DNA from: Chloroflexota bacterium
GTDB lineage: Bacteria; Chloroflexota; Limnocylindria; Limnocylindrales; CSP1-4
Reading direction: 5' to 3'
Length of the DNA stretch: 33,801 bases
NCBI GenBank assembly: GCA_031395155.1
Contig: JANNUK010000352.1
Span: forward strand, 1 to 33,801
Shown piece after piece: positions 9,308-30,722 of the stretch. Both the position numbers and the translations under genes were made by a program. A model generated the notes under the pieces. The model saw only the letters and a program-made list of their open reading frames with translations, searched no databases and was not told where the DNA came from. How positions within the stretch are numbered: position 1 is the stretch's first letter; the number at the start of each line of letters is the position of its first letter.

Positions 9308-9309
9308 CG

Positions 9310-11753: not shown

Positions 11754-12851
11754 TCACGGCGCGATGCGCATCCAGCGGATGTTCTTGATGCAGTTCTCTT
11801 CGCACCAGAAGACGAGGAAGACCCGGCCGTCCGGCTCCAGGACCATCTGCGGGAAGCCGAACTTCAGCTGGGCCAGCTCGGCGCCCGGGTTGCTTGCCCC
11901 GGACATTCCCGACGACTGACCGCGCCACAGCGCGACTGTTTCGAGGTTGACCCAGCGGTCGCCCTCGAGCCGCGCGGTCGTCGCCCACAGGCCGGGCTCG
12001 TCGTTGCGCCGGTAGACCGCCAGGATTCGCCCATCCGGCAATTCGACCATCTTCGTGGTCTGGGCGAGGAACCCGGTCAGGCCGTGGACGTCGAAGGACC
12101 GGCCGTCGCGCCCGATGGCGTACGGGGTGGGCTGGGTCAGGTTGGTGTTGAGGTCGACCGCCCAGGCCACGGCCAACCAGCGCCCGTCTCGGAGCTCCAG
12201 GAATGACTGCTCCCAGTGCAGGACGTTCTCCGCCCAGCGGTCGAAGTCGACGATAGAGGACGGCCACGTCCGTCCCTCATCCTCCGAGACAAGGAGGATC
12301 CCATTCATCCCGTTCGGGGCGTCACCATCCCAGCCCATCCAGGTGGACGTCGGCCAGACCAATCGGCCGTCGCGAAGGGTCACAATCGCGTGGCAAACCT
12401 CGAACGCGGGGCCCACCAGCGGCGGATCGATCCGCCTGGGCTCACTCCAGCTGTGGCCGCGATCCTGGCTGCGCAGCAGGAGCAGTTCCATCTCCGTGTA
12501 ACCGAGCGTCGGCACGTTCAGCACGCTCTTGTCGGGATCGTCGCGATACATCAGCGCACCCAACGCCACGACCGAGCCGTCAGCGACGCGGCTCGTCCTG
12601 ACCGAGTGCGTTGTGGGTCGTCCGGGCGGATCGGCGAGTACGCGCGTCGGTGCGGACCACGTAGCGCCACCGTCGGTGGAGTGGCTGGCGTGCGTGCGGT
12701 AGTCGAGGGCGACGTCCGCCTCGGCGATGTCGAACGTCACGAGGAGCTCGCCGTCCTCGAAGCGCACGATCGTCGGGTGCCACGTGTGGCGGGAGCGCAG
12801 CTCGGGGCGAGGATTCCGGTAGACGAGGCCGGTCTCGAGGACATCGATCAT
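11754..12851 (-). CDS. BNR/Asp-box repeat, sialidase-like (GH33-like) beta-propeller protein, no signal peptide
   Basis: From ORF 11754..12950, using the ATG at 12851 (MIDVLETGLVYRNP...). It has three Asp-box motifs of the SxDxGxTW type: SHSTDGGATWS, SQDRGHSWS and SEDEGRTWP. No hydrophobic N-terminus is present, so it is predicted cytoplasmic. Confidence 0.8.
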   Translation of the reverse strand: MIDVLETGLVYRNPRPELRSRHTWHPTIVRFEDGELLVTFDIAEADVALDYRTHASHSTDGGATWSAPTRVLADPPGRPTTHSVRTSRVADGSVVALGALMYRDDPDKSVLNVPTLGYTEMELLLLRSQDRGHSWSEPRRIDPPLVGPAFEVCHAIVTLRDGRLVWPTSTWMGWDGDAPNGMNGILLVSEDEGRTWPSSIVDFDRWAENVLHWEQSFLELRDGRWLAVAWAVDLNTNLTQPTPYAIGRDGRSFDVHGLTGFLAQTTKMVELPDGRILAVYRRNDEPGLWATTARLEGDRWVNLETVALWRGQSSGMSGASNPGAELAQLKFGFPQMVLEPDGRVFLVFWCEENCIKNIRWMRIAP

Positions 12852-12933
12852 CGGGCGGTCCTTGCAGGGTGGGAGAGGGAGGCAAGTGACATCATGCTTG
12901 AGTCCAGGTACCTGCGTGCAGTGTCCGTGTATC

Positions 12934-13890
12934 TCAGGATCGGTTCTCATCGGGCGCGGCGAGGACCACGAGGTTCTCCGAGCGCCCGACGCGCGCCCCG
13001 CGTCGGGCGAGCACCACGACCCCGGCCGCCGACGCGGTCACCTCGGCTCGGACGCCGGTGAGGGGATCGGTCACCACCGCCACGACCTGACCCGGCGCGA
13101 CCGAATCGAGCGGGCGGACGGCGGTCTCGCACACGCCGTCGAACGGCGCGACCATCGCCGGCTGGTCGAGATCGCCCTCGCCCACGAGGCGCAGCGGAGG
13201 AGCGGCCTGGGTCGATTCTCCGGCATCGAGCGCGTCCAGCAAGACCAGGGCCCGGCGGATTCCCGCGACATAGGCGTCGACGTGCGCCGGCATGACGGTC
13301 CCGCCACCGGCGGCCTCGGCATAGATGGACGGGATCCCTGCGGCGTGTGCTGCCGCCAGGGTTCGCCCGGCGGGTACGGGCCCGGGGTGTCGCCACAGCA
13401 CCGGCGCCGCGAAAGCCGCAGCCAGCTTGCCGCTGACGACACACGTCGCGCAGCCATCATCGGTCCAGCCGACCAGCAACGGCATTGCGTAGGCCGTTCC
13501 CGCGCTGTGCAGATCGACGAACACGTCCGAACCATTGATGACGTGCTGCAGCAGCGCATCGGCCAGGCGCTCGGTCGGACTGCCGGCCGGATCGCCTGGG
13601 AACGTGCGGGCGAGGTTCATCCCGTCGACCGGCGAGGACCTCGAGCTGGCGACGTGGGCGGCTTCGTGCGCGACAGGCACGAGGCGAAGGCGGCCGCGCA
13701 GAGCCGTGTCGGCCAGCTCCTCGGCCAACCGAAGGCAGGCGACGACGCCCTCGAACTCGTCGCCGTGGACCCCACCGACCACGGACACGGTCGGCCCGTC
13801 CGATCCGCCGACGAGCTCCACGATCGTGAAGCCCTCGTCCGGCCGCCCTTGAAGCCCGATCCGTCGCCGCTCCACCGTCTGCATGTCCAT
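12934..13890 (-). CDS. Succinylglutamate desuccinylase/aspartoacylase (AstE/AspA) family zinc deacylase
   Basis: 318-aa ORF. VVGGVHGDEFEG (Zn-binding HxxE), NLARTFPG and FVDLHSAG are the family signatures. The start is ATG 13890 or 13884, and neither has a visible Shine-Dalgarno. Confidence 0.8.
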   Translation of the reverse strand: MDMQTVERRRIGLQGRPDEGFTIVELVGGSDGPTVSVVGGVHGDEFEGVVACLRLAEELADTALRGRLRLVPVAHEAAHVASSRSSPVDGMNLARTFPGDPAGSPTERLADALLQHVINGSDVFVDLHSAGTAYAMPLLVGWTDDGCATCVVSGKLAAAFAAPVLWRHPGPVPAGRTLAAAHAAGIPSIYAEAAGGGTVMPAHVDAYVAGIRRALVLLDALDAGESTQAAPPLRLVGEGDLDQPAMVAPFDGVCETAVRPLDSVAPGQVVAVVTDPLTGVRAEVTASAAGVVVLARRGARVGRSENLVVLAAPDENRS

Positions 13891-13927
13891 GAGCGTAGTC
13901 GAGATCGACCCGCTTGACCGGATGGAT

Positions 13928-13947
13928 GTCTATTGTCGACAATCCAT
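13928..13947. promoter_or_regulatory. Operator-like palindrome, copy a (GTCTATTGTCGACAATCCAT)
   Basis: The 12-bp perfect palindrome ATTGTCGACAAT is at 13932-13943. It lies in the divergent intergenic region, and its centre is about 47 nt from both the AstE-like ATG (13890) and the Mo-subunit ATG (13985). Confidence 0.7.
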
Positions 13948-13984
13948 CGACGGCCCGTGCGCGGCCGTAGTGCAGGAGGACGCG

Positions 13985-16309
13985 ATGATCATGGGTCCAC
14001 GAGGCGCGCTGGGGGAGCTCGGGGTCGCCCGACCGCGGACTGACTCGGAGGAGAAGGTTCGAGGCGCCACGCGCTACGCCGCGGACCTGCCCGTCAAGGG
14101 CCTGTTGCACGCGCGGATCGTCCCGAGCCTCTACGCGCATGCTCGCATCCTGGGCATCGATGCCTCGGCCGCCCTGGAGGTACCCGGGGTCGTCGCCGTC
14201 CTGACCGCGGCCGATCTGCCGATCGTCGGCGCTGACGACATGCGGATGTTCGAGCCACTGGCTCGAAGCGAGGCGTTGTTCGCCGGACAGCCGGTGGCGC
14301 TCGTCGTGGCCGAAACGGATGCGGCGGCCGCGGACGCTGCGCAACTCGTGCTGGTCAAGGTCGAGCGGCTGCCGGCGGTGCTCGACCTTGCGGCGGCGAC
14401 CCATGTCGACAGCCCACTGGCACGCCTCGCGCCACTCGTTCCCGACGACGATGCCGAGGGTGGCTCCGCCAAGGCCGCGCATGCGGCCGTCGGAGGCGTG
14501 GGCGTCGAGCTCGACGACGAGGTCCTCTCGGCCAACGTCTTCAACCGGAAGCGCTACGTGCAGGGCGAAACCGCCGCCGCGCTGGCCGCCTCCGAGGCGA
14601 CGGTCGAGGCGACGTTCAACACCAGTTGGGTCTACCAGGGCTACATCGAGCCACACGCCGCGACCGCCTGGCTGGAGCCGGACGGGACCCTGACCGTGGC
14701 CACGGCGACGCAGGGAACGTTCTACGTCCGCAAGCAGCTCGCCCGGATCTTTGGCCGGCGGCTATCCACGATCCGTGTCCAGGCCACGCCGCTCGGAGGG
14801 TCATTCGGGTCGAAGATCCTGGTCGTCGACCCGCTCGTCGCGGGAGCCGCCCTCGTCCTTCGGCGCCCGGTCCGGCTCGTGTTGGACCGCCGCGAGGACA
14901 TCGCCGCAACGAATCCGGCGCCCGGATCGCTGATGGAGCTGCGCATCGGCGCTCGAGCCGACGGCACCCTGACCGGACTCGACGCCCGCCTCACGTTCGA
15001 CGCCGGGGCATACCGTGAATGGTCGATCGAGGGGATCGCCGCCGTACTCATCGGCGGACCATATCGCTGGGAGGCCTTCGATGTCCGGGCCTACGGCGTC
15101 CGAACGAATCGATTCGGGACCGGTTCGTATCGTGGACCCGGCGGGCCCCAGGCGGCATTTGCCATCGAGTCGCTGATCGACGAGCTGGCACAGCGGCTCG
15201 GCATCGACCCGATCGATTTTCGCCTGCGGAACCTGGCCGCGGATGGCGACACGATGGTCGACGGAGCGCCCTGGCCGGGACTGGGCCATCGGCAGGTCCT
15301 CGAGGCGGCGGCGGCACACCCCACCTGGATTGACCGGGCGACGTTGCCGCCCGGCGAGGGTGTCGCGCTGGCCCTCGGCGTGTGGCCGGGCGGCAAGGAG
15401 CCGGCGGCGGCGCTCTGCCGCCTGGATGCGGATGGGACGCTGACCGTCGTGACCGGTGTCGTCGACATGAGTGGGACGACATCGGTCTTCGCGCTGATCG
15501 CCGCCGAGACGTTCGGCGTGCCGGTCGATTCCGTGGACGTGGTGAGTCTCGACACCGACGGCGCGCCGCAATCGCCCATGAGCGGCGGCAGCGTGATCAC
15601 GTATTCGGCTGGACGGGCGATCCGCGAGGCCGCCGCCGACGCCCGACGGCAATTGCTCGCCTACGCCGCGCTCGACATGGAGATCGACCCGGTCGACCTG
15701 GAGATCGTGGATGGCGTGGTCCGGCCGGTCGGCTCACCCGATCGTGGACGGACGATCACCGACCTCGCAAGCGAGCTGCACGACTTCGGCAGTGGCCACC
15801 CCCCGGTGGAAGGGCACGCCTCGACGGTCCAGACCAGCCTGGCCCCATCGACGGCCGCGCACATTGCCCACGTTGCTCTCGATCGGGAGAGTGGCAAGGT
15901 GACCGTGCTCGGCTACGTCGTTGCCCAGGACGTCGGTCGAGCCCTCAATCCGGCCCTCGTGGAGGGCCAGATGCGCGGCGCGGCGGCACAGGGGATCGGC
16001 TGGGCCCTGTACGAGGCGCTGGTCCACGATGCGGAGGGCCAGCTCGTCAGCGGATCCTTCCTCGACTATGCGTTGCCCCGAGCGGCACACATCCCCCCGA
16101 TCGACACGATCATCGTGGAGGTCCCGGCGCCGGACGGCCCGTTTGGTGCAAAGGGGATCGGCGAGGCGCCGGTCATCCCGGCGGCGGCCGCCATCGCCTC
16201 GGCGATCTTCGCTGCGGGCGGGCCACGGCTCCGAAGCCTCCCGATGACCGGGCGTCTCGTCTGGGCCGGGCTTCAGGAGGTCGCCGCAGGAGCGCCGGGA
16301 ACCGGATGA
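13985..16309 (+). CDS. Xanthine dehydrogenase/aldehyde oxidase/CO-dehydrogenase family molybdopterin-binding large subunit
   Basis: From ORF 13883..16309. The ATG at 13985 is preceded by AGGAGG. The N-terminus RPRTDSEEKVRGATRYAADLPVKGLLHARIVPS..HARI is the a/b-hammerhead. About 774 aa with typical C-terminal GAKGIGEAPVIPAAAAIASAI. The polypeptide contains no 2Fe-2S or FAD domain. Confidence 0.85.
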   Translation: MIMGPRGALGELGVARPRTDSEEKVRGATRYAADLPVKGLLHARIVPSLYAHARILGIDASAALEVPGVVAVLTAADLPIVGADDMRMFEPLARSEALFAGQPVALVVAETDAAAADAAQLVLVKVERLPAVLDLAAATHVDSPLARLAPLVPDDDAEGGSAKAAHAAVGGVGVELDDEVLSANVFNRKRYVQGETAAALAASEATVEATFNTSWVYQGYIEPHAATAWLEPDGTLTVATATQGTFYVRKQLARIFGRRLSTIRVQATPLGGSFGSKILVVDPLVAGAALVLRRPVRLVLDRREDIAATNPAPGSLMELRIGARADGTLTGLDARLTFDAGAYREWSIEGIAAVLIGGPYRWEAFDVRAYGVRTNRFGTGSYRGPGGPQAAFAIESLIDELAQRLGIDPIDFRLRNLAADGDTMVDGAPWPGLGHRQVLEAAAAHPTWIDRATLPPGEGVALALGVWPGGKEPAAALCRLDADGTLTVVTGVVDMSGTTSVFALIAAETFGVPVDSVDVVSLDTDGAPQSPMSGGSVITYSAGRAIREAAADARRQLLAYAALDMEIDPVDLEIVDGVVRPVGSPDRGRTITDLASELHDFGSGHPPVEGHASTVQTSLAPSTAAHIAHVALDRESGKVTVLGYVVAQDVGRALNPALVEGQMRGAAAQGIGWALYEALVHDAEGQLVSGSFLDYALPRAAHIPPIDTIIVEVPAPDGPFGAKGIGEAPVIPAAAAIASAIFAAGGPRLRSLPMTGRLVWAGLQEVAAGAPGTG

Positions 16310-16929
16310 CCGCCACGACACATCCGGGCGCCGTGATCCATTGCTGGGATCACCTCGTGATCACGCTTCGCGATGACCCTGGCGGGGAGACCGCCTTCCT
16401 GAGCCTCTACGCGATCGCCTACTCGGCATCCCTGGGCGCCGGTCACGTGGCCTTCGCCGAGATCCGATCCTCCCCTGTCGGACGATGGAGCGCGACGCTG
16501 ACCGACGACCTCGAGCTCGGTCGACGTCAGCAGGATCGACTTGCGGCCATGGGCGACGAGCGAATGCGACGGAGCGGCCCGCCACGGTTGGCGCGGTTTG
16601 AGCGTGAGCCGTACGGTCCCGACGGTTTCGGCTTCCGGATCGAGACGGCCGACCAGCAGATCCACGCACGCTGGGACCACCCGGACGCGCCGTTCTGGGT
16701 CGATGGCCAGGGGGGCGGCCTCAGCGACGACGAGGACATCTGGGCGATGTTCGTCGGCGCGCGCCAGGCGACCTTGACCCTCAACGGCGCGGCCGTTGAG
16801 GGTTCCCCGTTCGACGACGACGTGTGGGTCCCCAAACTCGGCCGCCCGTTCAGTTCCGCGCACGGCGCCTTCGCCGAGGTCCGGGTCGTGCCGGTCAGTG
16901 GTCGTGCCAGAGGAACTGCTCCGGGGTGA
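16306..16929 (+). CDS. Hypothetical protein (207 aa), translationally coupled to the Mo subunit
   Basis: The in-frame ATG at 16306 overlaps the upstream TGA (ATGA at 16306-16309). The composition is protein-like (W, F, Y and D-rich: ...VIHCWDHLVITLRDDPGGETAFLSLYAIAYS...HARWDHPDAPFWVDGQGG...DDDVWVPKLGRPF...), whereas the antisense ORF 16273..16863 is R/G/A-rich. I recognise no family. It has a single Cys, so it is not a CoxS-type ferredoxin. Confidence 0.5.
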   Translation: MTATTHPGAVIHCWDHLVITLRDDPGGETAFLSLYAIAYSASLGAGHVAFAEIRSSPVGRWSATLTDDLELGRRQQDRLAAMGDERMRRSGPPRLARFEREPYGPDGFGFRIETADQQIHARWDHPDAPFWVDGQGGGLSDDEDIWAMFVGARQATLTLNGAAVEGSPFDDDVWVPKLGRPFSSAHGAFAEVRVVPVSGRARGTAPG

Positions 16930-17302
16930 CGACGATGATCACCTGCGCTGCCGCGGCGCTGATCTCCTCCCAGTGGGGGATGACGTCGGGTTCATCGCGG
17001 TACTTGCGGATGAGCGCGATGGCCGGTTCCCGCGCGGCCTCTCCTTCGATGAGGCTGGCCGTCCCGATCACCTGGACATAGTCGCCACTCGCGGGGTCGT
17101 CGATGCACAGGACGATCCGCGGGTCGCGCCGGAGGTTGTGGGTCTTGGCGGTCCCGGCGGCGCTGCAGATCCACAACTCGCCGCCCGTCCACAGATACCA
17201 GCTGGGCGTCAGCTGCGGCCGGCCGTCGCCGCGGACCGTCGCCACGATGACGTTCGGCATCGTCGTCAGGAACGCCTCCTGCCGCTCGGGCGAGGGGATC
17301 AC
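16895..17302 (-). CDS. PPOX-class (pyridoxamine 5'-phosphate oxidase fold) probable F420-dependent enzyme
   Basis: From ORF 16895..17314 (TTG). A GTG at 17302 overlaps the upstream stop (GTGA), which favours that start. ...NVIVATVRGDGRPQLTPSWYLWTGGELWICSAAGTAKTHNLRRDPRIVLCIDD... is typical of the PPOX-class F420-dependent family. Confidence 0.75.
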   Translation of the reverse strand: MIPSPERQEAFLTTMPNVIVATVRGDGRPQLTPSWYLWTGGELWICSAAGTAKTHNLRRDPRIVLCIDDPASGDYVQVIGTASLIEGEAAREPAIALIRKYRDEPDVIPHWEEISAAAAQVIIVVTPEQFLWHDH

Positions 17303-18114
17303 CGCGCCGTCCAACCGGCATCGATCATCTGCGCCGTCCCCGTGATGCCGGCCGCGTCCTCCGAGCAGAGGAAGCGGACGTACGCGGCCACCTCGTCCGC
17401 CTCGAGCAGGCGCGGGATGGCAGCTCCCGCCAGGATGATCCGGTCCAGGACCTCAGCCTCGGGGATCCCGGCAGTCCGGGCCTGGTCCGCGATCTGCGCC
17501 TCCACCAGTGGCGTTCGGACATAGGAGGGACAGACGGCGTTGCAGGTCACGCCATGCGCGCCGGCTTCGAGGGCGACGGCTCGGGTCAGCCCCAGGAGTC
17601 CGTGCTTCGCCGCGATGTAGGCGACCTTGTTCGGCGACGCCACGACCGAGTGGATCGAGCCGATATTGACGATGCGCCCCCAACCTCGCGCGATCATCGC
17701 GGGCAACGCAGCCTGGCTGAGGACGAACGGCGCGGTGAGCATGGTCGCGAGCATCGCATCCCAGCGCTCCATCGGGAAGTCGACGACCGGGGCGACGTGC
17801 TGGAAGCCGGCGCCATTGACCAGGATGTCGAGCCGCTCATGTCGCTCGATCACCGTCGCGATCATGGCCTGACAGGCAGCAACGTCCGCCAGCTCGACGG
17901 CGTGGACCCAGGCCCGGGGCAGCGCCGCCGCGACCGCGTTCGCCCTGATCTCATCGCGATCGACGACCACGACGGTGGCTCCGTCCGCCGTCAGCACCTC
18001 GGCGATCGCCCCGCCGATGCCTCCGGCCGCCCCGGTCACCACGGCCACCCGCTCGGTCAGCGGTGCGCTGGCCACGGCCGCGGCCGTGACCTGGGCCGGA
18101 TCACGGGCGGTCAA
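17299..18114 (-). CDS. Short-chain dehydrogenase/reductase (3-hydroxybutyrate-dehydrogenase-like SDR)
   Basis: VAVVTGAAGGIGGAI is the TGxxxGxG motif, NIGS is present, and YIAAKHG is the YxxxK motif, followed by PSYVRTPLV and ITGTAQMIDAGWTA. The TTG start at 18114 overlaps the ATPase stop (TTGA). Later in-frame GTG starts are possible. Confidence 0.85.
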   Translation of the reverse strand: MTARDPAQVTAAAVASAPLTERVAVVTGAAGGIGGAIAEVLTADGATVVVVDRDEIRANAVAAALPRAWVHAVELADVAACQAMIATVIERHERLDILVNGAGFQHVAPVVDFPMERWDAMLATMLTAPFVLSQAALPAMIARGWGRIVNIGSIHSVVASPNKVAYIAAKHGLLGLTRAVALEAGAHGVTCNAVCPSYVRTPLVEAQIADQARTAGIPEAEVLDRIILAGAAIPRLLEADEVAAYVRFLCSEDAAGITGTAQMIDAGWTAR

Positions 18115-19220
18115 TGGATGATCCGCTGACCGCTTTCTCGATCGAACAGGTGGATCCGCCCCGCCGCCAACACCGCCTGGACCGCTTGCCCGATTTCGAG
18201 GCGGACATCGGGGGCCACCCGGGCGACCACGGTCGCTTCTCCGGCGGCCAGTTCCACGAATGTATCGGAGCCGATCGGCTCCAGCAGCGCGACCGAGGCG
18301 CCGAAGCTTCCGATCGGCAGGTCTGCGACCCCGTTGGAGCGGAGCGTGACGTCCTCGGCGCGGACGCCGAGGGCCACGTTCGACCAGGACCCGTCACGAA
18401 GTCCCAGTTCGGCGGGCGAACCCAGCGCGATCCGGAGGTCCGGCGACACGAACGTCACCACGCCATCCGAATGCTCCAGGGCGCCGTCGACCAGGCTCAT
18501 CTTCGGCTTGCCGACGAACGTCGCGACATACAGATCGCGCGGATTCCGATAGATCTCCCGCGTGGTCCCAAGCTGGACGACCTTGCCGTCGCGCATGACC
18601 GCAATCAGGTCGGACAGCGACATGGCTTCCTCCTGGTCGTGGGTCACGAAGACACTGGTCGTGCCCAGGCTCAGGTGGAGGTGCTTGACCTCGGTCCTCA
18701 TCCGGCTGCGAAGGCCGGCATCCAGGTTGCTGAACGGCTCGTCGAGGAGGAAGACGAGCGGCTCCTTGACGAGCGCACGGCCAAGCGCGACGCGCTGCTG
18801 CTGACCGCCCGACATCTGGTCCGGTTTGCGCTTCAGCAGATGCGAGATGTCCAGCGTCTCGGCGACGGCGCCGACTCGGGAGCGGATCTCCGCCTTGGGC
18901 CGGTGCAGCAGCTTGAGACCGAACGCGATGTTGCCAAAGGCCGTCAGGTGCGGATACAGGGCATAGTTCTGGAAGACCATGGCCATCCGGCGTTCGTTCG
19001 GTGGCGTCATGGTGATGTCTTCGTTGCCCAGCAGGATGCGCCCCTTGTCGAGCCGGTCCAGCCCGGCGATCAGGCTCAAGGTCGTGCTCTTGCCGCAGCC
19101 GGACGGTCCAAGGAGCGTGACGAACGCGCCCGACGGGATGTCGATCGACAGGTTGTCGACGGCGCGGACCTTGCCGTAGAAGCGCGAGACCCCTTCCAGC
19201 CTGAGCGCGATGTCGGCCAT
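18111..19220 (-). CDS. ABC transporter ATP-binding protein, MalK/UgpC/MsiK-type (NBD paralog 1)
   Basis: Walker A is GPSGCGKST, the Q-loop is VFQNYALYP, the signature is MSGGQQQRVALGRAL and Walker B is VFLLDEPFSNLD. A C-terminal TOBE-like regulatory domain is present. The ATG at 19220 is preceded by GAGAGGAAA. Confidence 0.9.
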   Translation of the reverse strand: MADIALRLEGVSRFYGKVRAVDNLSIDIPSGAFVTLLGPSGCGKSTTLSLIAGLDRLDKGRILLGNEDITMTPPNERRMAMVFQNYALYPHLTAFGNIAFGLKLLHRPKAEIRSRVGAVAETLDISHLLKRKPDQMSGGQQQRVALGRALVKEPLVFLLDEPFSNLDAGLRSRMRTEVKHLHLSLGTTSVFVTHDQEEAMSLSDLIAVMRDGKVVQLGTTREIYRNPRDLYVATFVGKPKMSLVDGALEHSDGVVTFVSPDLRIALGSPAELGLRDGSWSNVALGVRAEDVTLRSNGVADLPIGSFGASVALLEPIGSDTFVELAAGEATVVARVAPDVRLEIGQAVQAVLAAGRIHLFDRESGQRIIH

Positions 19221-19325: not shown

Positions 19326-19345
19326 GCATATTGTTGACAATCTAC
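19326..19345. promoter_or_regulatory. Operator-like palindrome, copy b (GCATATTGTTGACAATCTAC)
   Basis: The core ATTGTTGACAAT is at 19330-19341, with one mismatch from the perfect palindrome. It lies about 110 nt upstream of the ATPase-1 ATG, in the 190-nt gap after the Gfo stop. A half-site-like AATGTCGAC follows at about 19366. Confidence 0.6.
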
Positions 19346-22706: not shown

Positions 22707-22738
22707 GGCACAGGGCGAGGTTCTTCTCGCCCTGTGCC
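22707..22738 (-). terminator. Perfect 13-bp stem hairpin (GGCACAGGGCGAG-N6-CTCGCCCTGTGCC)
   Basis: Seen directly in the sequence. It lies between the SBP stop (22786) and the MetE-like gene, with 1 nt (22706) separating it from the ATG at 22705. It could be a terminator or mRNA-stabilising element for the permease-SBP transcript, or an attenuator for the MetE-like gene. Confidence 0.5.
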
Positions 22739-24249: not shown

Positions 24250-26156
24250 CCCTTCACAAACCCTCCTGATAGACCGGAGATGATCCGGCGGTGGAATAGA
24301 AGGACAAGCAACAGGCAGGGGATCACCGCGACGATCGCCGCCGCGGCGAGCAGATTCGGTGGCGGCATCTGATTGAGCGGCCCTGGGAAGTTCTGGATCC
24401 CCGTGATCAGGCGGGTGATCGTGACGGCTTCCCGATTGCCCAGGATCACGGCGAACAGGAACTCGTTCCAGGTCCCGATCAGGATGAGGATAGACGCGGC
24501 TGCAAGCCCCGGGCGAGCCGCCGGGATGGTGACACGGAACAGGGTTCCCAGGCGTGAGCAGCCGTCGATTCGGGCGGCCTTCTCGAGCGAGACCGGGACC
24601 TCCAGGAAGAAGTTGCGCAACAACCAGATGATCAGGGGGAGCCAGAACGCCACATTGACGATGACCAGCGATGCCACGGTGTCGGTCAGGCCCAGGATCT
24701 GGAAGATGCGCAGGACCGGGATCGCCATGACGATGGCCGGGACCATCTGGACGATGATGAGGAGGGCGAGGGTCGTCGACTTGCCGGGCAGCTCATAGCG
24801 GGCCAGAGCGTAGGCCGGCGGCGCAGCCAGGATGATGACGAAGAGCGTCGTCAGGAGCGCGGTCTGCAGGCTGACCCACAGTGAGCCCACCCAGCGCGGG
24901 TCGCCCGCGATGATCTGGTAGCCATCCAGCCACAGGTTCGACGTCAGGGCCGGTGGCTGCTGGGCCAGGGCGGCGAACGGCTGCAGGCTCGCGATGACCA
25001 TCCAGGCGATCGGCGCGATGAAAAAGAAGAAGAGCGCCGACACACCCAGCCCGAACGCGATTCGGCTGACCCAGGCCGGGAATCTGATCCAGGACCGCGC
25101 CCGCTCGGCATCCGGCTGGGCGTCGCTGGTCCAGGCCACACGTGATGACCGGGAGCCCAGGCGAAGCGAGGTGCGCGCGGATGCGGCGGCGTTCTCGGCC
25201 TCCTCGTCGACAGGCGGCCCGACCGGCTGGCGGCGACGCAAGAACACCAGGATCAGGAGGCTGGCCGCGACGATGATCGCGAACAGGACCACGGTGATCG
25301 CCGCGCCATAGCCGAGACTGATCTGCTCAAATGTGATCGTGTAGATCGCGTAGATGAGCACGTACGTGTCGCGACCCGGACCACCGCTGGTGAGGCTGTA
25401 CAGCAGGTCGAACACCTGGAGCCCGATGATGATCTGGAGGACGCCCACGACGATCAGCGTGTTCTTGATCGCCGGCAGCGTGATGAAGCGGAAGGATTCC
25501 CATGCCGTGGCGCCGTCCATCCGGGCCGCCCGATAGTGCGCCTCCGGGATGGTCCTCAATGCGGCGAGCAGGAGCACCGCGAGGAGTGGGACCGATCGCC
25601 ACGATTGCGCGATGAGCGCGATCACCACGGCCTGAACCGTGTTGGCCAGCCAGTTCAACGGTTCATCGAGAAGCCCGATCCCGATGAGGACCCCGTTCAC
25701 GATGCCGAAGTTGGTATCGAAGATGAATCGCCAGAAGATCCCGGCCACGATCGACGCGACCGCCCATGGCATCAGCAGTCCCATGAAGAAGATCGAGGCG
25801 CCGCGAAACCCCCGGTTGAGGGCCAGCGCCGTGATCAGGGCCAGAGGCAGGGTAATGGCGGTGGACATCGCGGCGAAGAAGATGGTCCGTGGGATCGCCG
25901 CCAGGACCTCCAAATCGGCCGGGAGTCGGGTCAGGTAATTGCGCAATCCCACGAATGGGGTGAGATCGTCCTTCGCGAGTTCGATGCGGAAGAGGCTCAA
26001 CCCGAACACGGCAAGCGTCGGGGGAAGGACGATCAGGCCCACCAGGAGCAGACCCGGGACGGACACCAGGAGGGCGAAACGCTGTTCGCTCAGCCGATCG
26101 AGGCGGCGCGACAGGCGGCCCGCCCCACGACTGAGTGCCGCCCCGGCTAGCGCCAT
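24246..26156 (-). CDS. Fused double ABC permease (MalF-like + MalG-like halves in one polypeptide)
   Basis: This is the single ORF 24246..26225; I prefer the ATG at 26156, which has GGAGG 10 nt upstream. It has two complete BPD_transp_1-type halves, each with its own EAA loop (EAHYRAARMDGATAWESFRFITLPAI and SLEKAARIDGCSRLGTLFRVTIPAA). A linker of about 50 aa (RRRQPVGPPVDEEAENAAASARTSLRLGSRSS...) joins them. Confidence 0.85.
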   Translation of the reverse strand: MALAGAALSRGAGRLSRRLDRLSEQRFALLVSVPGLLLVGLIVLPPTLAVFGLSLFRIELAKDDLTPFVGLRNYLTRLPADLEVLAAIPRTIFFAAMSTAITLPLALITALALNRGFRGASIFFMGLLMPWAVASIVAGIFWRFIFDTNFGIVNGVLIGIGLLDEPLNWLANTVQAVVIALIAQSWRSVPLLAVLLLAALRTIPEAHYRAARMDGATAWESFRFITLPAIKNTLIVVGVLQIIIGLQVFDLLYSLTSGGPGRDTYVLIYAIYTITFEQISLGYGAAITVVLFAIIVAASLLILVFLRRRQPVGPPVDEEAENAAASARTSLRLGSRSSRVAWTSDAQPDAERARSWIRFPAWVSRIAFGLGVSALFFFFIAPIAWMVIASLQPFAALAQQPPALTSNLWLDGYQIIAGDPRWVGSLWVSLQTALLTTLFVIILAAPPAYALARYELPGKSTTLALLIIVQMVPAIVMAIPVLRIFQILGLTDTVASLVIVNVAFWLPLIIWLLRNFFLEVPVSLEKAARIDGCSRLGTLFRVTIPAARPGLAAASILILIGTWNEFLFAVILGNREAVTITRLITGIQNFPGPLNQMPPPNLLAAAAIVAVIPCLLLVLLFHRRIISGLSGGFVKG

Positions 26157-26233: not shown

Positions 26234-26253
26234 GTCGATTGTCAACAATAGCC
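26234..26253. promoter_or_regulatory. Operator-like palindrome, copy d (GTCGATTGTCAACAATAGCC)
   Basis: The core ATTGTCAACAAT is at 26238-26249, with one mismatch. It sits in the gap between the VHPO-like stop (26281) and the permease start. On the gene strand it reads TATTGTTGACAATCGAC and contains a TTGACA hexamer. Confidence 0.6.
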
Positions 26254-26280: not shown

Positions 26281-27696
26281 TCACCGCAGGCTCCCATCGC
26301 GGCTCGCCCGCGCGACCGCGAGCTCGCCGATCTGGCGTCCCACGTCCAGGCCCACCTCGTTATCGCTGCGCCAATGGATGCCGCCATACAGGCGCGATAC
26401 CGCCGCCTCCTCGGACTGCTGGGTGAGCGATGCGCGATCAGCGGGAAAGAAGGCGGACAGGACGAACGAGCTGGCACCCGAGAGGGTCGAATGACCGGAG
26501 ATGTAGGCCGGGAAGTTGGGGGTGATGATTGTCGAGGCGAAGCCCGGGATCAGCCCGACCGGTCGACCCGACCAATAGGCGTACTTGGCGTCCCAGCACG
26601 CGATGAACGCATCTGCCTGGGCGATCGCAAGGTAGGTGAGGACGCGTGCCGTCGACTGGAGCGACAGCGCGTCTCGAGCAGTCAGTCCGATGGCGATACG
26701 CATCCAGTGCCCCGGAGGGGTATCGGTCCCCGAACCGTCCGCCCAGAACCGCGCGATCCCGATCTGTTCGTCCGTGAGCTGCTCGTTCACTCGGACGACC
26801 TCGTCGGCTTCCGCCTGCCACTCCGGCGACCCGTAGATCGGCGGGGGGCCGGGCCGGAGATCCGAGCCGCTGCCCATGAGCCAGGGCCGCCAGGTCCCGG
26901 CCAGGGGCTCGGTCGGCTGGTCGTTCCGGAATGGCTTGGCGGGCACCCATCCCCCGGGCTGGTCGGGAATCGTGCCCTGCCAGAAGGCCGACCCGCCGTC
27001 GCTCTCGGCGCGCGCGACGGCCAGGGCCCCGATCGCCTCGCCTATTGCGGTGCCGGCGGCAAGATCCGAAGCAGTGTGCGTCCCGACGGCGAGTTGGACG
27101 CTGCGCAATTCGTCGGCATGTCCTTCGAACGTCGCTGAGCGGTCCGGATAGATCGTCGAGAGGACCGCCACCGCTGCGGCCGCGATCGCGGCATCCACCG
27201 CGGCGTGGCTGGAAAGTTCGTCCGCCGGTGCGAGCACCTTGATTCGAGAATCGCGCTCGACTGGCGCAGATCGCGGGTACGCGAGCTTGGCGTCGCACGC
27301 GGCAATGATCGCGTCGTACATGGCGGCGTTCAGAAGCGCGAGGGTCCGCGAGACCCGCACGGGATTGGTCTTCGCGTCCCTGACGGCCGTCAGCAGGATC
27401 TCGTTCCAGCGGACGGGGGAGGGACCCGACGTCCAGTAGGCGATCTGGTCGTTCAGACTCGAGGCATCTACCTGGCCGGCGACGATCTCGTCGAGCTCAC
27501 GACGATCCTCGGCCGATCCGATCTCAACCCGGGGGGCCAGCCGGACATCGCTCGGCCGCTGCATGAGGAGCGGCTGCCAGCGGGCGGGCGCCTCGGCCCG
27601 CGCGGACCGCACGACGAAGGTTCCGGCCACGAGGGCGACGACCGTCGCCACCAGGATGATCAATCCGAACCGGGCCTTGCGTGCGCGCGAGGTCAT
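26281..27696 (-). CDS. Secreted PAP2-superfamily protein, vanadium-dependent haloperoxidase-like / acid-phosphatase-like
   Basis: The start is ATG 27696 (TGATG overlap with the upstream stop) or GTG 27699. The N-terminal signal/anchor is FGLIILVATVVALVAGTFVVRSARA. All three PAP2 motifs are present: KYAYWSGRP (Kx6RP), YISGHS (SGH) and SRLYGGIHWRSD (SRx5Hx3D). The N-terminal helical domain (WNEILLTAVRD...LLNAAMYDA) is as in bacterial VHPO-like proteins. Confidence 0.7.
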   Translation of the reverse strand: MTSRARKARFGLIILVATVVALVAGTFVVRSARAEAPARWQPLLMQRPSDVRLAPRVEIGSAEDRRELDEIVAGQVDASSLNDQIAYWTSGPSPVRWNEILLTAVRDAKTNPVRVSRTLALLNAAMYDAIIAACDAKLAYPRSAPVERDSRIKVLAPADELSSHAAVDAAIAAAAVAVLSTIYPDRSATFEGHADELRSVQLAVGTHTASDLAAGTAIGEAIGALAVARAESDGGSAFWQGTIPDQPGGWVPAKPFRNDQPTEPLAGTWRPWLMGSGSDLRPGPPPIYGSPEWQAEADEVVRVNEQLTDEQIGIARFWADGSGTDTPPGHWMRIAIGLTARDALSLQSTARVLTYLAIAQADAFIACWDAKYAYWSGRPVGLIPGFASTIITPNFPAYISGHSTLSGASSFVLSAFFPADRASLTQQSEEAAVSRLYGGIHWRSDNEVGLDVGRQIGELAVARASRDGSLR

Positions 27697-29396
27697 CACG
27701 GCGCACCGTTCGAGGTGACCCGGATGACCTGATCCGCCTGCACCGACCCGAGGTTGGTCGTTGTGGCATCAGACCATGTCACGACGACCTCATCGGCCAT
27801 CTCGGCCTGCCCAAGCCCAAAGTAGAGCTCCTGGGGCATCCCGGCCAGGTAACTTCCTCCGAGGAGCGCAACCTGCGTTGTTCTGATCCCGCCGACGTCG
27901 ACGGTCACACGGGCGCCGGCAGCCTGGGCGCCGGCCCGGCTCAGATCCACGGTAAGCCAGTGCTGGTCGGACGTCCCGTTCTCCAGCAGGACCACGGAAT
28001 AGGCCACCTGGGTCACGAGCAGGTCCGGCCCGCCGTCGCGGTCGTAGTCGAATGGGATCACGGTCCGCTGATCACCCGGGATATCGCAGCCGTTCCCGAT
28101 CGCGCGCACCAACGCCCGCTCTCCCGTGCCCAGGAAGAGACGGGCGTTCTGGCCGCGAAGTTCGGGGCTTTGCTGTGCGATGAATTCCTGCATGCCCTGG
28201 ACGACGTACAGGTCCAGCCGGCCGTCGAGATCCATGTCCGTGAAGGCGGTCCCCCAGCCCCAGCCGGTGTCCTCGACACCCATCCGGGTGGCGTCATCGA
28301 CGTAGGTCAGTGTGCCGTCGGCGGCGCGTCCCCCGATCAGCAGCGTATTCCCGGACCCGGTTCCGAACTCGTTGTTGGGATCCGTGATGTTGGTGACGTA
28401 CAGGTCCAGCGCTCCGTCGTTCCCGAGATCTGCGACGGCGATCCCCATGTCGTTGCCGACATGACCCACGCCGTGCTCGTCGGAGGCCAGGCGGAATTCG
28501 CCCTCGTGATTCTCGAAGAAGAGGTCGCCCCGATGGTCCAACGCGACGTACAGATCCGGCCAGCCATCCCCGGTGAAGTCGGCGAAGACCGAACTGAAGC
28601 TGTCGGCTGTGACCTGGCCGAGATGGACTTCGCTGGTCACGTCCTCGAAGCGAAACCCGCCGAGGTTCCGGTACAACCGGTTCTGACCGGGGAAGCGACC
28701 CTTGATGCTCATCGCGTCGCGTCCGGGGTCTCCACCAAGCTCCATCGTCCAGTAGGTCACATACACGTCGAGGAGCCCATCGCGGTCGTAGTCCGCCAGC
28801 GACAATCCACCGACGAGATAGCCGACGGGATCGAACCCGGAGTCCTTGGTCACGTCGGCGAAGGTGCCATCACCCTCGTTTCGATAGACCTTCGATGGGC
28901 TGCCGGTCTTGTTCCCGTCCCAGTCGTTCATGACGATCAGGTCGAGCTGGCCATCGTTGTCGAGGTCGACGAAGGCGGCGGCGCGGCTCCCGCCCTCGTT
29001 CGTGAGCCCCGCTGAGTCGGTGGCATCGACGAAGTCCGCCTGGCCGGTCGCGCTGAGTTGATTACGGAAGAGGCGATTCGGGTGGCCGAGCTGGCCGAGC
29101 AGCAGGACGCTCAGGCTCCCATCGTCGAACACATCCGCGACGGCCGCACCGTTGCCCATATTGCGAAGCATCATCGCGGCCATGGGTTCCAGGGCGAAGG
29201 GCGTGGTCCCGTAGGCACCGCGATACGAGAGTCCTCGATCGGTCGCCACGTCGCGGCAGAGCTTCGGCGCGGCGGTCGCGGGTCGAGTCAGAACCAGCCC
29301 GCCCGCGACCAGCAGGACCGAGGCCGCGACGACGACGATCAGCGCGGCGATGACCATCCGGCGGCGTCCGATGATCGATCTCGCGGCTATGCTCAT
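27696..29396 (-). CDS. CRTAC1-family protein (FG-GAP/VCBS repeats + ASPIC/UnbV C-terminal domain), membrane-anchored or secreted
   Basis: From ORF 27696..29483. The ATG at 29396 is preceded by GAGGAGAGG. The N-terminal hydrophobic segment is MVIAALIVVVAASVLLVAGG. It has six DxDxDGxxD-type repeats (FVDLDNDGQLDLIV, LADYDRDGLLDVYV, FADFTGDGWPDLYV, VADLGNDGALDLYV, FTDMDLDGRLDLYV, FDYDRDGGPDLLV). The C-terminal ...GGSYLAGMPQELYFGLG is UnbV/ASPIC-like. Confidence 0.8.
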   Translation of the reverse strand: MSIAARSIIGRRRMVIAALIVVVAASVLLVAGGLVLTRPATAAPKLCRDVATDRGLSYRGAYGTTPFALEPMAAMMLRNMGNGAAVADVFDDGSLSVLLLGQLGHPNRLFRNQLSATGQADFVDATDSAGLTNEGGSRAAAFVDLDNDGQLDLIVMNDWDGNKTGSPSKVYRNEGDGTFADVTKDSGFDPVGYLVGGLSLADYDRDGLLDVYVTYWTMELGGDPGRDAMSIKGRFPGQNRLYRNLGGFRFEDVTSEVHLGQVTADSFSSVFADFTGDGWPDLYVALDHRGDLFFENHEGEFRLASDEHGVGHVGNDMGIAVADLGNDGALDLYVTNITDPNNEFGTGSGNTLLIGGRAADGTLTYVDDATRMGVEDTGWGWGTAFTDMDLDGRLDLYVVQGMQEFIAQQSPELRGQNARLFLGTGERALVRAIGNGCDIPGDQRTVIPFDYDRDGGPDLLVTQVAYSVVLLENGTSDQHWLTVDLSRAGAQAAGARVTVDVGGIRTTQVALLGGSYLAGMPQELYFGLGQAEMADEVVVTWSDATTTNLGSVQADQVIRVTSNGAP

Positions 29397-29422
29397 CCTC
29401 TCCTCAGGCCGGGCCCTGGACG

Positions 29423-29442
29423 GGATACTGTCGACAATCGAT
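29423..29442. promoter_or_regulatory. Operator-like palindrome, copy e (GGATACTGTCGACAATCGAT)
   Basis: The core ACTGTCGACAAT is at 29427-29438, with one mismatch. It lies 31 nt upstream of the CRTAC1 ATG (29396). Confidence 0.6.
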
Positions 29443-29556
29443 GCCGGAGTGCCGCGACGATAGCGATTCCCCGGCGTCTCCACAAGGTCCAGTCCGATTT
29501 CGGACCGCCGACCAGTGGTGGTTGGCTGCTGCCTTGACGCTCGGCGCGTTCGACCG

Positions 29557-29576
29557 GTAGATTGTCGACAATCTAC
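29557..29576. promoter_or_regulatory. Operator-like palindrome, copy f (GTAGATTGTCGACAATCTAC, perfect 20-bp palindrome)
   Basis: All 20 positions are self-complementary. It ends 39 nt upstream of the ATPase-2 ATG (29616). TAGATT and TACGCT (TAnnnT, -10-like) overlap or flank it. Confidence 0.75.
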
Positions 29577-29615
29577 GCTGTGGTCATCGGTGCCCGCCAG
29601 CTGCGGAGAGGGTCA

Positions 29616-30722
29616 ATGGTCGTCGCCTCGCTCAGCCTTCGCCATCTCGCGCGCCGCTATGGGCACGTTCGCGCCGTTGATGACCTGGATCTCGAGGTCC
29701 CGGATGGCGCGTTCGTGACGCTCCTCGGCCCGTCGGGTTGTGGGAAGAGCACGACGCTGAACCTCATCGCCGGCCTCGATCGGCCCGATGCCGGGACGAT
29801 CCTCCTGGGTGATCGAGATGTCACGTCGGTGCCCCCGAACGAGCGTCGGATGGCGATGGTCTTCCAGAACTACGCCCTGTACCCGAACATGACGGTGTTC
29901 GAGAATATCGGCTTCTCCCTGAGGCTCCGTCGAACGCCGGCCACGGCGATGACAGAACGGGTCACGGCCGTCGCCGAGATGCTCGATATCGGCCACCTGC
30001 TCCATCGCAAGCCGGCCCAGCTGTCCGGCGGACAGCAGCAACGCGTGGCGCTGGGGCGGGCCCTCGTCAAGCAACCGCTCGTGTTCCTGCTCGACGAACC
30101 ATTCAGCAACCTGGACGCCGCGCTTCGTGCCCGGATGCGCACCGAGGTGAAGCACCTCCATCTGGCGCTCGGGACGACCAGCGTCTTCGTGACCCACGAC
30201 CAGGAAGAGGCGATGACGCTGTCGGACATGATCTGCGTCATGCGCGACGGGAAGATCGTCCAGTCCGGGTCCCCGGGGGAGATCTACGGCAAGCCTCAGA
30301 CGATCTATGTCGCCGAGTTCGTCGGCAAGCCTCGGATGAGCCTGCTCGACGGCTCGCTCGAACACGGCGCCGACGGTGTCACATTCATCCGGGCCGACCT
30401 GCGCATCGATCTTGGCCCGGCGGCCGGACTCGGCCTCAAGGACGGGGCGTGGCCAACGGTCGCGCTCGGCGTCCGGGCGGAGGACGTCATCGTCCATGTC
30501 GGCGGATCGGCGGTGGGACGGGCATCCTTTCCCGCGACGGTTGGGCTGACGGAGCCCATCGGTTCGGACACGTTCGTCGAACTCGACGTCGGCGACGCCA
30601 CCATCGTCGCCCGCGTGGATCCGGACCTGCCGATTTCGCTGGGCCAGTCGGTCTCGGCCGAACTTCGGTCGTCCGCGATCCACCTCTTCACCAGGGAAAC
30701 GGGCGAACGCATCATCGCCTGA
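29616..30722 (+). CDS. ABC transporter ATP-binding protein, MalK/UgpC/MsiK-type (NBD paralog 2), not adjacent to any permease
   Basis: From ORF 29562..30722; the TTG at 29562 lies inside the operator. The ATG at 29616 is preceded by GGAGAGGG. Motifs are GPSGCGKST, LSGGQQQRVALGRAL and VFLLDEPFSNLD. Long identical runs with 18111..19220 include PPNERRMAMVFQNYALYP, RMRTEVKHLHL and LGTTSVFVTHDQEEAM. Confidence 0.9.
   Translation: MVVASLSLRHLARRYGHVRAVDDLDLEVPDGAFVTLLGPSGCGKSTTLNLIAGLDRPDAGTILLGDRDVTSVPPNERRMAMVFQNYALYPNMTVFENIGFSLRLRRTPATAMTERVTAVAEMLDIGHLLHRKPAQLSGGQQQRVALGRALVKQPLVFLLDEPFSNLDAALRARMRTEVKHLHLALGTTSVFVTHDQEEAMTLSDMICVMRDGKIVQSGSPGEIYGKPQTIYVAEFVGKPRMSLLDGSLEHGADGVTFIRADLRIDLGPAAGLGLKDGAWPTVALGVRAEDVIVHVGGSAVGRASFPATVGLTEPIGSDTFVELDVGDATIVARVDPDLPISLGQSVSAELRSSAIHLFTRETGERIIA

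Follow-up and report, generated by a model that had tools for sequence, protein, structure and literature searches.

What do the Limnocylindria-type Chloroflexota live on? These bacteria are abundant in soils and uncultured, and their diet is largely unknown. A 33,801-nucleotide contig from a Limnocylindrales genome (JANNUK010000352.1, assembly GCA_031395155.1), referred to here as the window, has a G+C content of 68% and carries a set of genes linked by a shared operator palindrome that encode an ATP-binding cassette (ABC) importer, two extracellular proteins and a series of cytoplasmic enzymes. An earlier note on this DNA had read the set as one co-regulated system of extracellular processing, uptake and oxidative catabolism. 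Our analysis bears out a single conserved regulon; that it is also a single pathway goes beyond what the data demonstrate, which is co-regulation. We lean slightly towards a reading in which a carbohydrate-derived compound is imported and then oxidized by a non-phosphorylative route, with the regulon under a FadR-type GntR/FCD repressor. Genes were called by codon-position G+C and then checked against Pfam and NCBIfam, where all families named by the earlier note were recovered at the positions it gave, and leader peptides (signal peptide, lipobox, anchor) were read by eye. Several open reading frames (ORFs) were taken to start downstream of the longest-ORF start because operators fall inside their 5′ extensions.

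The operator was found by a repeat search as a palindrome of consensus GTAGATTGTCGACAATCTAC. The pattern ATTGTNNACAAT, with at most one mismatch, occurs at six sites against 0.11 expected. A weight matrix built from the window sites and their orthologous sites recovers the same six (21-40 bits) and no further one in 33.8 kb (0.04 in shuffled sequence), and the borders 11754-30722 proposed for the motif-linked set are therefore right. All six operators lie in promoter regions, span 13.9-29.6 kb and serve eight transcription units (Table 1), with O5 and O6 both in the intergenic region between the divergent FG-GAP/haloperoxidase-like unit and the second ATPase gene. Scanning 11.7-30.8 kb with a promoter consensus turned up four sigma-70-like promoters where 1.1 were expected, each of them overlapping an operator: the TAGATT arm of the palindrome is itself the -10 box at O2 and O6, O1 overlaps a -10-like hexamer, GACAAT, of the plus-strand promoter, and the -35 box TTGACA lies within O4. 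This overlap of promoter and operator would fit the geometry of repression by occlusion, and a T.GT..AC.A-type palindrome repeated at promoters is what GntR/FCD regulons display. Operators also stand at the orthologous promoters of relatives, down to 44-49% identity of the binding protein. O1 has an orthologous site in one relative (L178), O3 is kept in L001 and L005-L009, and O6 in more than 10 relatives. An Rfam scan returned no riboswitch and no RNA.

No GntR/FCD gene is present in the window. The sole regulator there is an XRE/cupin protein (6306-7037), which was considered as the regulator of the motif and rejected, having no operator nearby. We scanned one genome per GTDB species for the exact 18-mer TAGATTGTCGACAATCTA and obtained 73 loci, about 45 of them from Chloroflexota, which are of two kinds: promoters belonging to this cluster, and loci where the site abuts a GntR+FCD gene of 248-254 amino acids, flanked by three to four enolase-superfamily genes, FMN-dependent and D-specific 2-hydroxyacid dehydrogenases and a GNAT gene. 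Orthologues of this regulator gene (65-100% identical) begin 16-100 bp away from the operator in 16 loci of Chloroflexota, tying regulator gene and operator together in related loci, and on two megabase contigs the regulator locus lies 60-70 kb from the cluster. We thus predict that the regulon answers to an autoregulated GntR/FCD protein whose gene lies outside the window. This regulator has no equivalog match (57 bits to the NanR model), and the same 18-mer stands just upstream of GntR/FCD genes in Shewanella (in S. fidelis, L091 4842-5553, beside methylisocitrate lyase), Williamsia, Actinomadura, Neptunomonas and others, so the sequence appears to be common to FCD-type regulators across phyla, a generic FadR-type operator. 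The characterized FCD-type GntR regulators DgoR, UxuR, LldR and NanR sense carboxylates. The operator-linked loci, including the regulator locus, hold three to four acid-sugar-dehydratase-like enolase-superfamily paralogues, an FMN-dependent 2-hydroxyacid dehydrogenase, a 2-hydroxyacid dehydrogenase, HpcH and Gfo genes.

To follow conservation, every protein of the window was compared by tblastn with loci retrieved through the binding protein, the haloperoxidase-like or the MetE-like protein. Among 14 loci whose MetE-like protein is at least 60% identical, the operator, binding protein, ATPase and Gfo oxidoreductase occur in every one, the permease and PPOX-class enzyme in 13, an enolase-superfamily dehydratase in 12, the Mo subunit and its neighboring partner in 11, the FG-GAP, haloperoxidase-like and AstE proteins in 10, the short-chain dehydrogenase/reductase (SDR) in nine, the 2-hydroxyacid dehydrogenase in seven and the BNR protein in six, the last count being limited by the 10-kb flank. 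The units are thus co-localized, syntenic in all 14 close relatives, and a core of fused permease, binding protein, MetE-like barrel, ATPase, Gfo and enolase-superfamily dehydratase keeps its order to about 44% binding-protein identity. At 44-49% the core persists with the 2-hydroxyacid dehydrogenase and FG-GAP genes and is joined by SGL and Amidohydro_2 lactonase-type genes. One such locus (L013, 49%) reads GntR/FCD, GNAT, BNR_2, PALP, Asparaginase_2, FG-GAP/UnbV, permease, MetE-like, binding protein, operator, ATPase, two dehydratases, Gfo and 2-hydroxyacid dehydrogenase; another (L177, 44%) reads SGL, Amidohydro_2, dehydratase, Gfo, ATPase, a one-mismatch operator, PPOX, partner, permease, binding protein, MetE-like, FG-GAP/UnbV, dehydratase and 2-hydroxyacid dehydrogenase. 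A third (L016, 46%) has two tandem permease/binding protein/MetE-like triads by HPr, Enzyme I and a mannose-type phosphotransferase system (PTS), with no operator. In some relatives the cluster is flanked by genes of the DHDPS family or of Amidohydro_1 or PIG-L deacetylase type. Homologues of the binding protein and the MetE-like barrel were found only in soil-type Chloroflexota (labeled Chloroflexia, Limnocylindrales or Thermomicrobiales), and an identical copy of the binding protein is present in the Chloroflexota metagenome-assembled genome (MAG) GCA_031399035.1.

From the families of these proteins we would propose the following course of events. What is demonstrated is the regulon with its conservation, the family of the regulator, the overlap of operators with promoters, and the protein families with their localization signals; enzyme roles, reaction order and the nature of substrate and effector are inferred at family level. 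The block would be the main locus of a multi-locus regulon, in which the FadR-type GntR repressor, with its FCD ligand domain and encoded elsewhere in the genome, would bind the 20-bp palindrome over the -10 and -35 boxes of eight units until a carboxylate effector, presumably a pathway intermediate of sugar-acid type, releases it. A CUT1 importer, made up of the lipoprotein binding protein, the fused permease and the two paralogous ATPases, probably paired as a heterodimer, would bring in a carbohydrate-derived substance, which the BNR_2 propeller and the AstE-type deacylase may trim in the cytoplasm. The Gfo-type dehydrogenase would then oxidize the unphosphorylated compound to a lactone and thence a sugar acid, followed by an enolase-superfamily dehydratase, present in relatives and lost at this position here, and by steps of the 2-hydroxyacid dehydrogenase, the SDR and perhaps the Mo subunit, which would oxidize an aldehyde or a heterocycle. 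Outside the cell, the membrane-anchored CRTAC1-like propeller and the haloperoxidase-type enzyme, which is secreted, are predicted to be accessory, binding or pre-processing source material. The set of families is consistent with a sugar-acid route: FCD repressor, CUT1 importer, Gfo, lactonase-type genes in the distant versions, dehydratases, 2-hydroxyacid dehydrogenases and, in relatives, HpcH and DHDPS aldolases.

Several points weigh against this reading. No protein reached an equivalog cut-off (the SDR and PPOX enzymes pass subfamily models only), and every assigned step is therefore family-level only. The window contains no dehydratase and no operator-linked aldolase or lactonase, and neither the GntR/FCD regulator nor its effector was seen in this genome. 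Neither in the window nor beside the orthologues in L018 and L178 is there a [2Fe-2S] or FAD subunit gene for the Mo subunit, which makes its activity uncertain. We know of no described sugar-acid pathway with a place for the PPOX/F420 enzymes, the partner, the MetE-like barrel, BNR_2, AstE or either extracellular protein. Since the close relatives share descent, much of the synteny is not independent evidence.

Table 1. Positions of operators, genes and other elements of the operator-linked part of the window.
Feature	Position	Strand	Basis or remark
BNR_2 six-bladed propeller, 365 aa, sialidase fold	11754..12851	-	Pfam BNR_2 8.6e-15
AstE/AspA-family deacylase, 318 aa, first gene of AstE-BNR unit	12934..13890	-	Pfam AstE_AspA_cat 1.6e-24
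Operator O1	13928..13947		GTCTATTGTCGACAATCCAT; 28 bits; between divergent AstE-BNR and Mo subunit-partner units
Xanthine-oxidase-family Mo large subunit	13985..16309	+	Pfam Ald_Xan_dh_C, MoCoBD_1, MoCoBD_2
Partner, 207 aa	16306..16929	+	overlaps Mo subunit stop by ATGA; 35-nt overlap with convergent PPOX gene
F420-dependent PPOX-class oxidoreductase	16895..17314	-	PNPOx_N 6.8e-18
SDR, 3-hydroxybutyrate-dehydrogenase subfamily	17299..18114	-	adh_short 2.6e-52; TIGR01963 308 against cut-off 307
MalK-type ABC ATPase 1, TOBE domain	18111..19220	-	Pfam
Operator O2	19326..19345		31.7 bits; overlaps -10-like TAGATT of ATPase 1-SDR-PPOX promoter
Gfo/Idh/MocA oxidoreductase, 352 aa	19411..20469	-	Pfam
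Operator O3	20522..20541		38 bits; between divergent Gfo and 2-hydroxyacid dehydrogenase genes
D-isomer-specific 2-hydroxyacid dehydrogenase, 330 aa	20585..21577	+	Pfam, NCBIfam
MetE-fold (beta/alpha)8 barrel	21602..22687	-	Pfam Meth_synt_2 1e-13
Hairpin, 14-bp stem	22707..22738		gap between binding-protein and MetE-like genes
Solute-binding lipoprotein, SBP_bac_1 (CUT1) type	22786..24249	-	twin-arginine leader and lipobox, SRRDVLKGG...FVAAC
Fused double permease, two BPD_transp_1 domains	24246..26156	-	Pfam; orthologues 636-642 aa
Operator O4	26234..26253		24.8 bits; overlaps perfect TTGACA -35 box of permease-binding protein-MetE-like promoter
Secreted PAP2/vanadium-haloperoxidase-type protein	26281..27696	-	Pfam; Sec-type signal peptide
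FG-GAP_3/UnbV_ASPIC (CRTAC1-like) propeller	27696..29399	-	Pfam; N-terminal membrane anchor
Operator O5	29423..29442		one core mismatch, 20.7 bits; proximal to FG-GAP gene start
Operator O6	29557..29576		perfect 20-bp palindrome, 39.8 bits; overlaps -10-like TAGATT of ATPase 2 promoter
MalK-type ABC ATPase 2, TOBE domain	29616..30722	+	Pfam

The importer has the parts that define the CUT1 type: a pair of permease domains, an SBP_bac_1 protein that carries an export signal, and an ATPase of MalK type whose C-terminal domain is regulatory. The binding protein of the window itself falls below the Pfam threshold, and its homologues carry PF01547 or PF13416 (PF01547 in P0009 and P0013, at no more than 84% identity); its nearest match in the Protein Data Bank (PDB) has an E value of only 7e-4. 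Among the PDB entries matched by the binding protein, the MetE-like barrel, BNR_2, FG-GAP, haloperoxidase-like and Gfo proteins, the Mo subunit and the dehydratase of the relatives, none is a solved relative near enough to name the substrate, and no near orthologue of a characterized enzyme or transporter was found among the proteins. Of the two findings that the earlier note said would tell against its reading, units never together in other genomes and close orthology to characterized systems for an ordinary sugar, neither was made. The two ATPases are 68% identical. Their genes have promoters 10 kb apart, each under its own operator control, and at the DNA level make up a long inverted repeat (18347-19189 and 29647-30489, with 73-75% identity across about 800 nt). 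The hairpin between the binding-protein and MetE-like genes may be an intra-operon mRNA stabilizer or attenuator that favors expression of the binding protein.

The barrel encoded after the binding protein has the fold of MetE (model pLDDT 93, Foldseek TM-score 0.72-0.75 to MetE structures) without its His-Cys-Glu-Cys zinc site: both cysteines are replaced (HLS for HxC, PNGSL for NPDCG) in 21 of 21 aligned members of this family, which is confined to the lineage. Below about 47% identity its matches are the first gene of a split MetE, in which a 374-amino-acid half of N-terminal type precedes a complete catalytic half of 346 amino acids. For this reason the regulon barrel is, as judged from its relatives, a duplicate of the non-catalytic N-terminal-type half of split MetE; the N-terminal half of MetE binds the folate tail. 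An apparent association of MetE-like and Mo-subunit genes in 31 of 36 distant loci was rejected, as it reflects the split housekeeping MetE beside a cox-like operon, a synteny conserved in Limnocylindria-type genomes. In L221 (10001-18411) and about 30 similar loci the split MetE halves are followed by cox-like Fer2_2, Mo large subunit, MoCF_biosynth and AAA ATPase genes. Two members of the MetE-like family (P0337, P0341) end in a PTS HPr domain that has the active-site motif GLHARPA, and in L016 (11549-14888) the MetE-like gene precedes HPr and Enzyme I genes. This fusion and neighborhood hint at phosphotransfer or regulatory coupling.

The BNR_2 protein is a propeller with three Asp-boxes, as in GH33 sialidases (model pLDDT 90), and its best Foldseek match is Dfer_1899, followed by GH33 sialidases at a TM-score of about 0.7 and 13-20% identity. 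Bacterial exo-sialidases are typically secreted or surface-located; this protein has no signal peptide and is cytoplasmic, and family members of about 365 amino acids likewise lack a leader. Its invariant residues include YRNP (R12), E214, R224 and R281-282, of which E214 lines up with the Glu conserved in GH33 enzymes. After R282 no Tyr is invariant, and an invariant GFP stands where GH33 has GYS, a placement made by eye; profile alignments to sialidases miss the first and last blades, including the nucleophile blade. The family has more than 900 matches in varied gene contexts across several phyla, with relatives at 52-55% identity in Planctomycetota, where an orthologue adjoins a DHDPS gene, and in Latescibacteria. 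In one chloroflexotal locus (L096, 5952-13681), three BNR_2 paralogues lie amid two luciferase-like oxidoreductases and a phosphotriesterase-family gene, by an Opp-type ABC importer, and BNR_2 with a flavin or F420 enzyme is a recurring association. The AstE-type protein has no leader, and its best NCBIfam model is DoeB (100 bits against a cut-off of 403). The Gfo protein matches inositol dehydrogenases best in the PDB, over its full length (6e-25; IolG model 135 bits against a cut-off of 355), while its matches to NanOx (2e-17) and YjhC (4e-11) cover only residues 18-213, the Rossmann half; it is thus no nearer to these two than to other Gfo enzymes. The enolase-superfamily dehydratase is absent here, and a 190-bp spacer with O2 is left (19221-19410); in most relatives a 396-amino-acid, galactonate-dehydratase-like gene stands between Gfo and ATPase 1 (L005 15478-16668).

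The Mo subunit carries the Moco domains and catalytic Glu of a Mo hydroxylase large subunit, with motifs GGSFGSK and GIGEAP, and AGGAGG precedes its ATG at 13985. Its best PDB match is 1rm6 (9e-78), and it is nearest to hydroxylases of aromatic and N-heterocyclic compounds. The earlier note had paired it with an unidentified partner; the Mo family stands, and the partner, encoded on the plus strand, tracks the PPOX gene instead. The plus-strand reading frame of the partner has a G+C content of 0.83 at third codon positions, and an antisense ORF (16273-16863, minus strand) was rejected on codon-position G+C. The protein contains one Cys and has no Pfam or NCBIfam match. Its orthologues, 79% (L018), 62% (L178) and 41% (L177) identical, are always convergent with a PNPOx gene, and in L177 it occurs without any Mo subunit, which suggests that the partner may be linked to the PPOX enzyme rather than to the Mo subunit. 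The partner and PNPOx genes overlap at their 3′ ends by 21-38 nt (window 16306-17314; L177 6534-7841; L178 4900-6226). The PPOX enzyme belongs to the F420 class (TIGR03618, 91.6 bits against a cut-off of 79.05).

Of the two extracellular proteins, the one of vanadium haloperoxidase (VHPO) type has the complete PAP2/VHPO active-site signature (KxxxxxxRP, SGH, SRxxxxxHxxxD), here K372-R379-P380, S401-G402-H403 and S435-R436...H442...D446, invariant or nearly so in homologues. Its best PDB match is the Zobellia vanadium iodoperoxidase 4cit (1e-27), with acid phosphatases at about 1e-4 and weak Pfam matches to VCPO_N and VCPO_2nd, and the signature would fit a vanadate haloperoxidase or an acid phosphatase alike. 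The FG-GAP protein has four Dx[DN]xDG calcium motifs, and its only PDB match is human CRTAC1 (9etn, 2e-17). We know of no biochemical function for human CRTAC1 or for this CRTAC1-like protein. The proposed CRTAC1/VHPO pair was followed with a VHPO-like alignment across GTDB species genomes. The family is very large, with 7167 representatives. Of 80 loci, only about 10 have FG-GAP and transporter genes alongside, all from this clade; the 70 loci from other phyla (Actinomycetota, Acidimicrobiia, Armatimonadota, Nitrospirota and others), at 35-47% identity, have no FG-GAP or binding-protein neighbor, and three close relatives are without both extracellular genes at this position. A general pair was accordingly rejected outside this clade. 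The link of FG-GAP to the transporter persists at 44-51% identity, in two cases without a VHPO-like gene, and the VHPO-like protein is, in this cluster, clade-confined and dispensable, the FG-GAP protein frequent. Our literature searches (CRTAC1 with haloperoxidase, ASPIC/UnbV with ABC transporter, Limnocylindria carbohydrate use, VHPO in Chloroflexi) gave no description of such a system, no function for bacterial CRTAC1/UnbV members and nothing on a CRTAC1 and haloperoxidase pair.

How much of this belongs to one metabolic purpose can be judged from how the membership varies. A single FCD regulator could govern several unrelated pathways, making the 19-kb block a co-regulated mosaic: in relatives the operator controls at least three locus types, the FG-GAP and VHPO-like genes are absent from four of the 14 loci, the 2-hydroxyacid dehydrogenase is present in only half, the dehydratase is lost here, and the BNR_2 and VHPO-like families occur elsewhere in very different contexts. 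One relative even has its BNR and Mo units about 50 kb from the transporter, by an HpcH-Gfo-FAH-XRE/cupin block with its own regulator, yet these displaced units retain their operators, which points to functional coupling. The core set, moreover, stays intact down to 44% binding-protein identity and there is one importer only, and we regard a mosaic as unlikely, though a real contender. The earlier note had offered a different guess, taken from a precedent in Ruminococcus gnavus: that an N-acylated or anhydro keto-deoxy sugar acid of nonulosonic type is scavenged through an enzyme resembling sialidases, an oxidoreductase resembling NanOx, deacylases and an aldolase. The fold of BNR_2 with its Asp-boxes and aligned Glu, a CUT1-type importer and Gfo protein in one set, the DHDPS-family (NanA family), Amidohydro_1 and PIG-L genes flanking some relatives, the DHDPS gene beside the planctomycete orthologue and the fact that NanR is an FCD regulator, albeit matched weakly here, all speak for it. 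The guess nevertheless gains no specific support: the Gfo protein is nearer to inositol dehydrogenases, and BNR_2 is cytoplasmic, of variable context and without an invariant Tyr at the expected nucleophile site. The binding protein matches no sialic-acid binding protein, the regulon part has no NanA/NanK/NanE-type genes, neither kinase nor epimerase, and the several acid-sugar-type dehydratases that the regulon has in relatives would be unneeded for nonulosonate catabolism. The HpcH aldolase and second deacylase that the earlier note had invoked lie outside the regulon, within 3.4-11.2 kb, with no operator on either in the window. We therefore think a nonulosonic substrate improbable.

The redox enzymes raise a further alternative, an N-heterocycle of nucleoside, pterin, flavin or deazaflavin type, in glycosylated or ribitylated form, whose ring would be handled by the Mo and F420/flavin PPOX enzymes, whose sugar would pass to the Gfo, dehydratase and dehydrogenase enzymes, and whose phosphate a PAP2 enzyme would strip outside the cell. 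The nearest relatives of the Mo subunit, the stable membership of two PPOX-class genes and the PPOX-linked partner family, the descent of the MetE-like barrel from the folate-tail-binding half of MetE and the intact PAP2 signature are in keeping with such a substrate. The argument is compositional only, with no member near an enzyme characterized from a pathway of this sort; sugars are the usual cargo of CUT1 importers, the electron-transfer subunits of the Mo enzyme are missing, and the most distant of the conserved loci have neither the Mo subunit nor the partner, which leaves this substrate with a slim chance. Slimmer still is the prospect that the VHPO-type enzyme is a true vanadium haloperoxidase that oxidizes soil organic matter with the CRTAC1-like propeller while the importer takes up the released small acids. 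The iodoperoxidase as best solved relative, the weak VCPO matches and the signal peptide favor it, and secreted bacterial VHPOs that act on exogenous molecules are documented (PMC11312541). Against these stand a signature common to acid phosphatases, the absence of the gene in remoter versions of the cluster and in some of the close ones, and the lack of an H2O2-generating enzyme encoded alongside. Import followed by non-phosphorylative oxidation of a carbohydrate-derived compound is thus the reading we retain.

The nearest described relatives of the architecture are the DgoR/dgo and UxuR-ExuR systems of Escherichia coli, which share an autoregulated GntR/FCD repressor, a TTGT..ACAA-type palindrome over promoters and an enolase-superfamily dehydratase with an aldolase-type partner in the regulon. 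They differ in that the regulator here has no equivalog match and the regulon is far larger, taking in an ABC importer and extracellular proteins as well as a Mo subunit, F420 enzymes and the MetE-like barrel. Non-phosphorylative aldose oxidation (L-rhamnose LRA1-6, L-fucose, Weimberg/Dahms) likewise combines a dehydrogenase, a lactonase-type enzyme, an enolase-superfamily dehydratase and HpcH or SDR with FAH, whereas here all scores are far below equivalog cut-offs, the dehydrogenase is of Gfo type, the dehydratase is missing, and FAH and HpcH lie outside the regulon in the window. The 2,7-anhydro-Neu5Ac cluster of R. gnavus (NanOx) and E. coli YjhC resemble the locus in having a CUT1 importer, Gfo/Idh/MocA and a sialidase-fold protein at one locus, and differ in that here the Gfo is not specifically NanOx-like, the sialidase-fold protein is cytoplasmic and atypical, and there is no NanA/K/E set. 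MalEFGK2 has the same SBP_bac_1 binding protein, two BPD_transp_1 domains and MalK-type ATPase with TOBE/OB domain; in the window the permease halves are fused, two ATPases sit in separate operator-controlled units, and the MetE-like barrel is an obligate operon partner. The Zobellia iodoperoxidase (4cit), the AQ-VHPOs (PMC11312541) and class A acid phosphatases share the active-site signature and secretion signal, but the gene here lies within an operon for nutrient uptake, next to that of a CRTAC1-like protein, and is so placed in this clade only. Human CRTAC1 is also an extracellular FG-GAP calcium-binding propeller with a UnbV_ASPIC domain; the present protein is bacterial, membrane-anchored, and co-transcribed with, or divergent from, ABC importer genes.

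Overall, this is a repressor-controlled carbohydrate/sugar-acid utilization regulon whose general architecture is of a known type, so the novelty lies in the accessory parts and not in the principle. With considerable doubt, we also entertain the idea that it represents a new importer-centered acquisition system of the Limnocylindria-type lineage, in which the CRTAC1-like propeller, the half-MetE barrel (HPr-fused in some) and the PPOX-linked protein of about 200 amino acids serve an undescribed substrate class; if true, it would give bacterial CRTAC1/ASPIC-UnbV proteins their first functional context. With one operator, one regulator family and one importer, the regulon is a compact, well-delimited and testable unit. 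The identity of its substrate would give functions to the cytoplasmic BNR_2, bacterial CRTAC1/UnbV, MetE-derived barrel and PPOX-linked families, and would show the use of an orphan Mo subunit.

The DNA on either side of the regulon adds some minor observations. Positions 1-11720 hold a separate catabolic block without the GntR operator, comprising an NHL propeller, Gfo, an F420-type luciferase-like oxidoreductase, Amidohydro_3 and a D-Ser-dehydratase/BhcC-like PLP enzyme, together with the XRE/cupin regulator, Gfo, FAH, Gfo, HpcH and a 265-amino-acid ORF. In the Limnocylindrales MAG that contains L178, an HpcH-Gfo-FAH-Gfo-XRE/cupin-...-Amidohydro_3 stretch is syntenic with it and adjoins the BNR and Mo subunit genes. 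On the other side, neither of the next two genes has its own operator: a second PNPOx-family gene (30736-31494) with a long Ala/Pro-rich N-terminal extension, kept by ATPase 2 in relatives, and a lipoprotein-like ORF of more than 560 amino acids (32013-33800), with only a faint strictosidine-synthase-like match.

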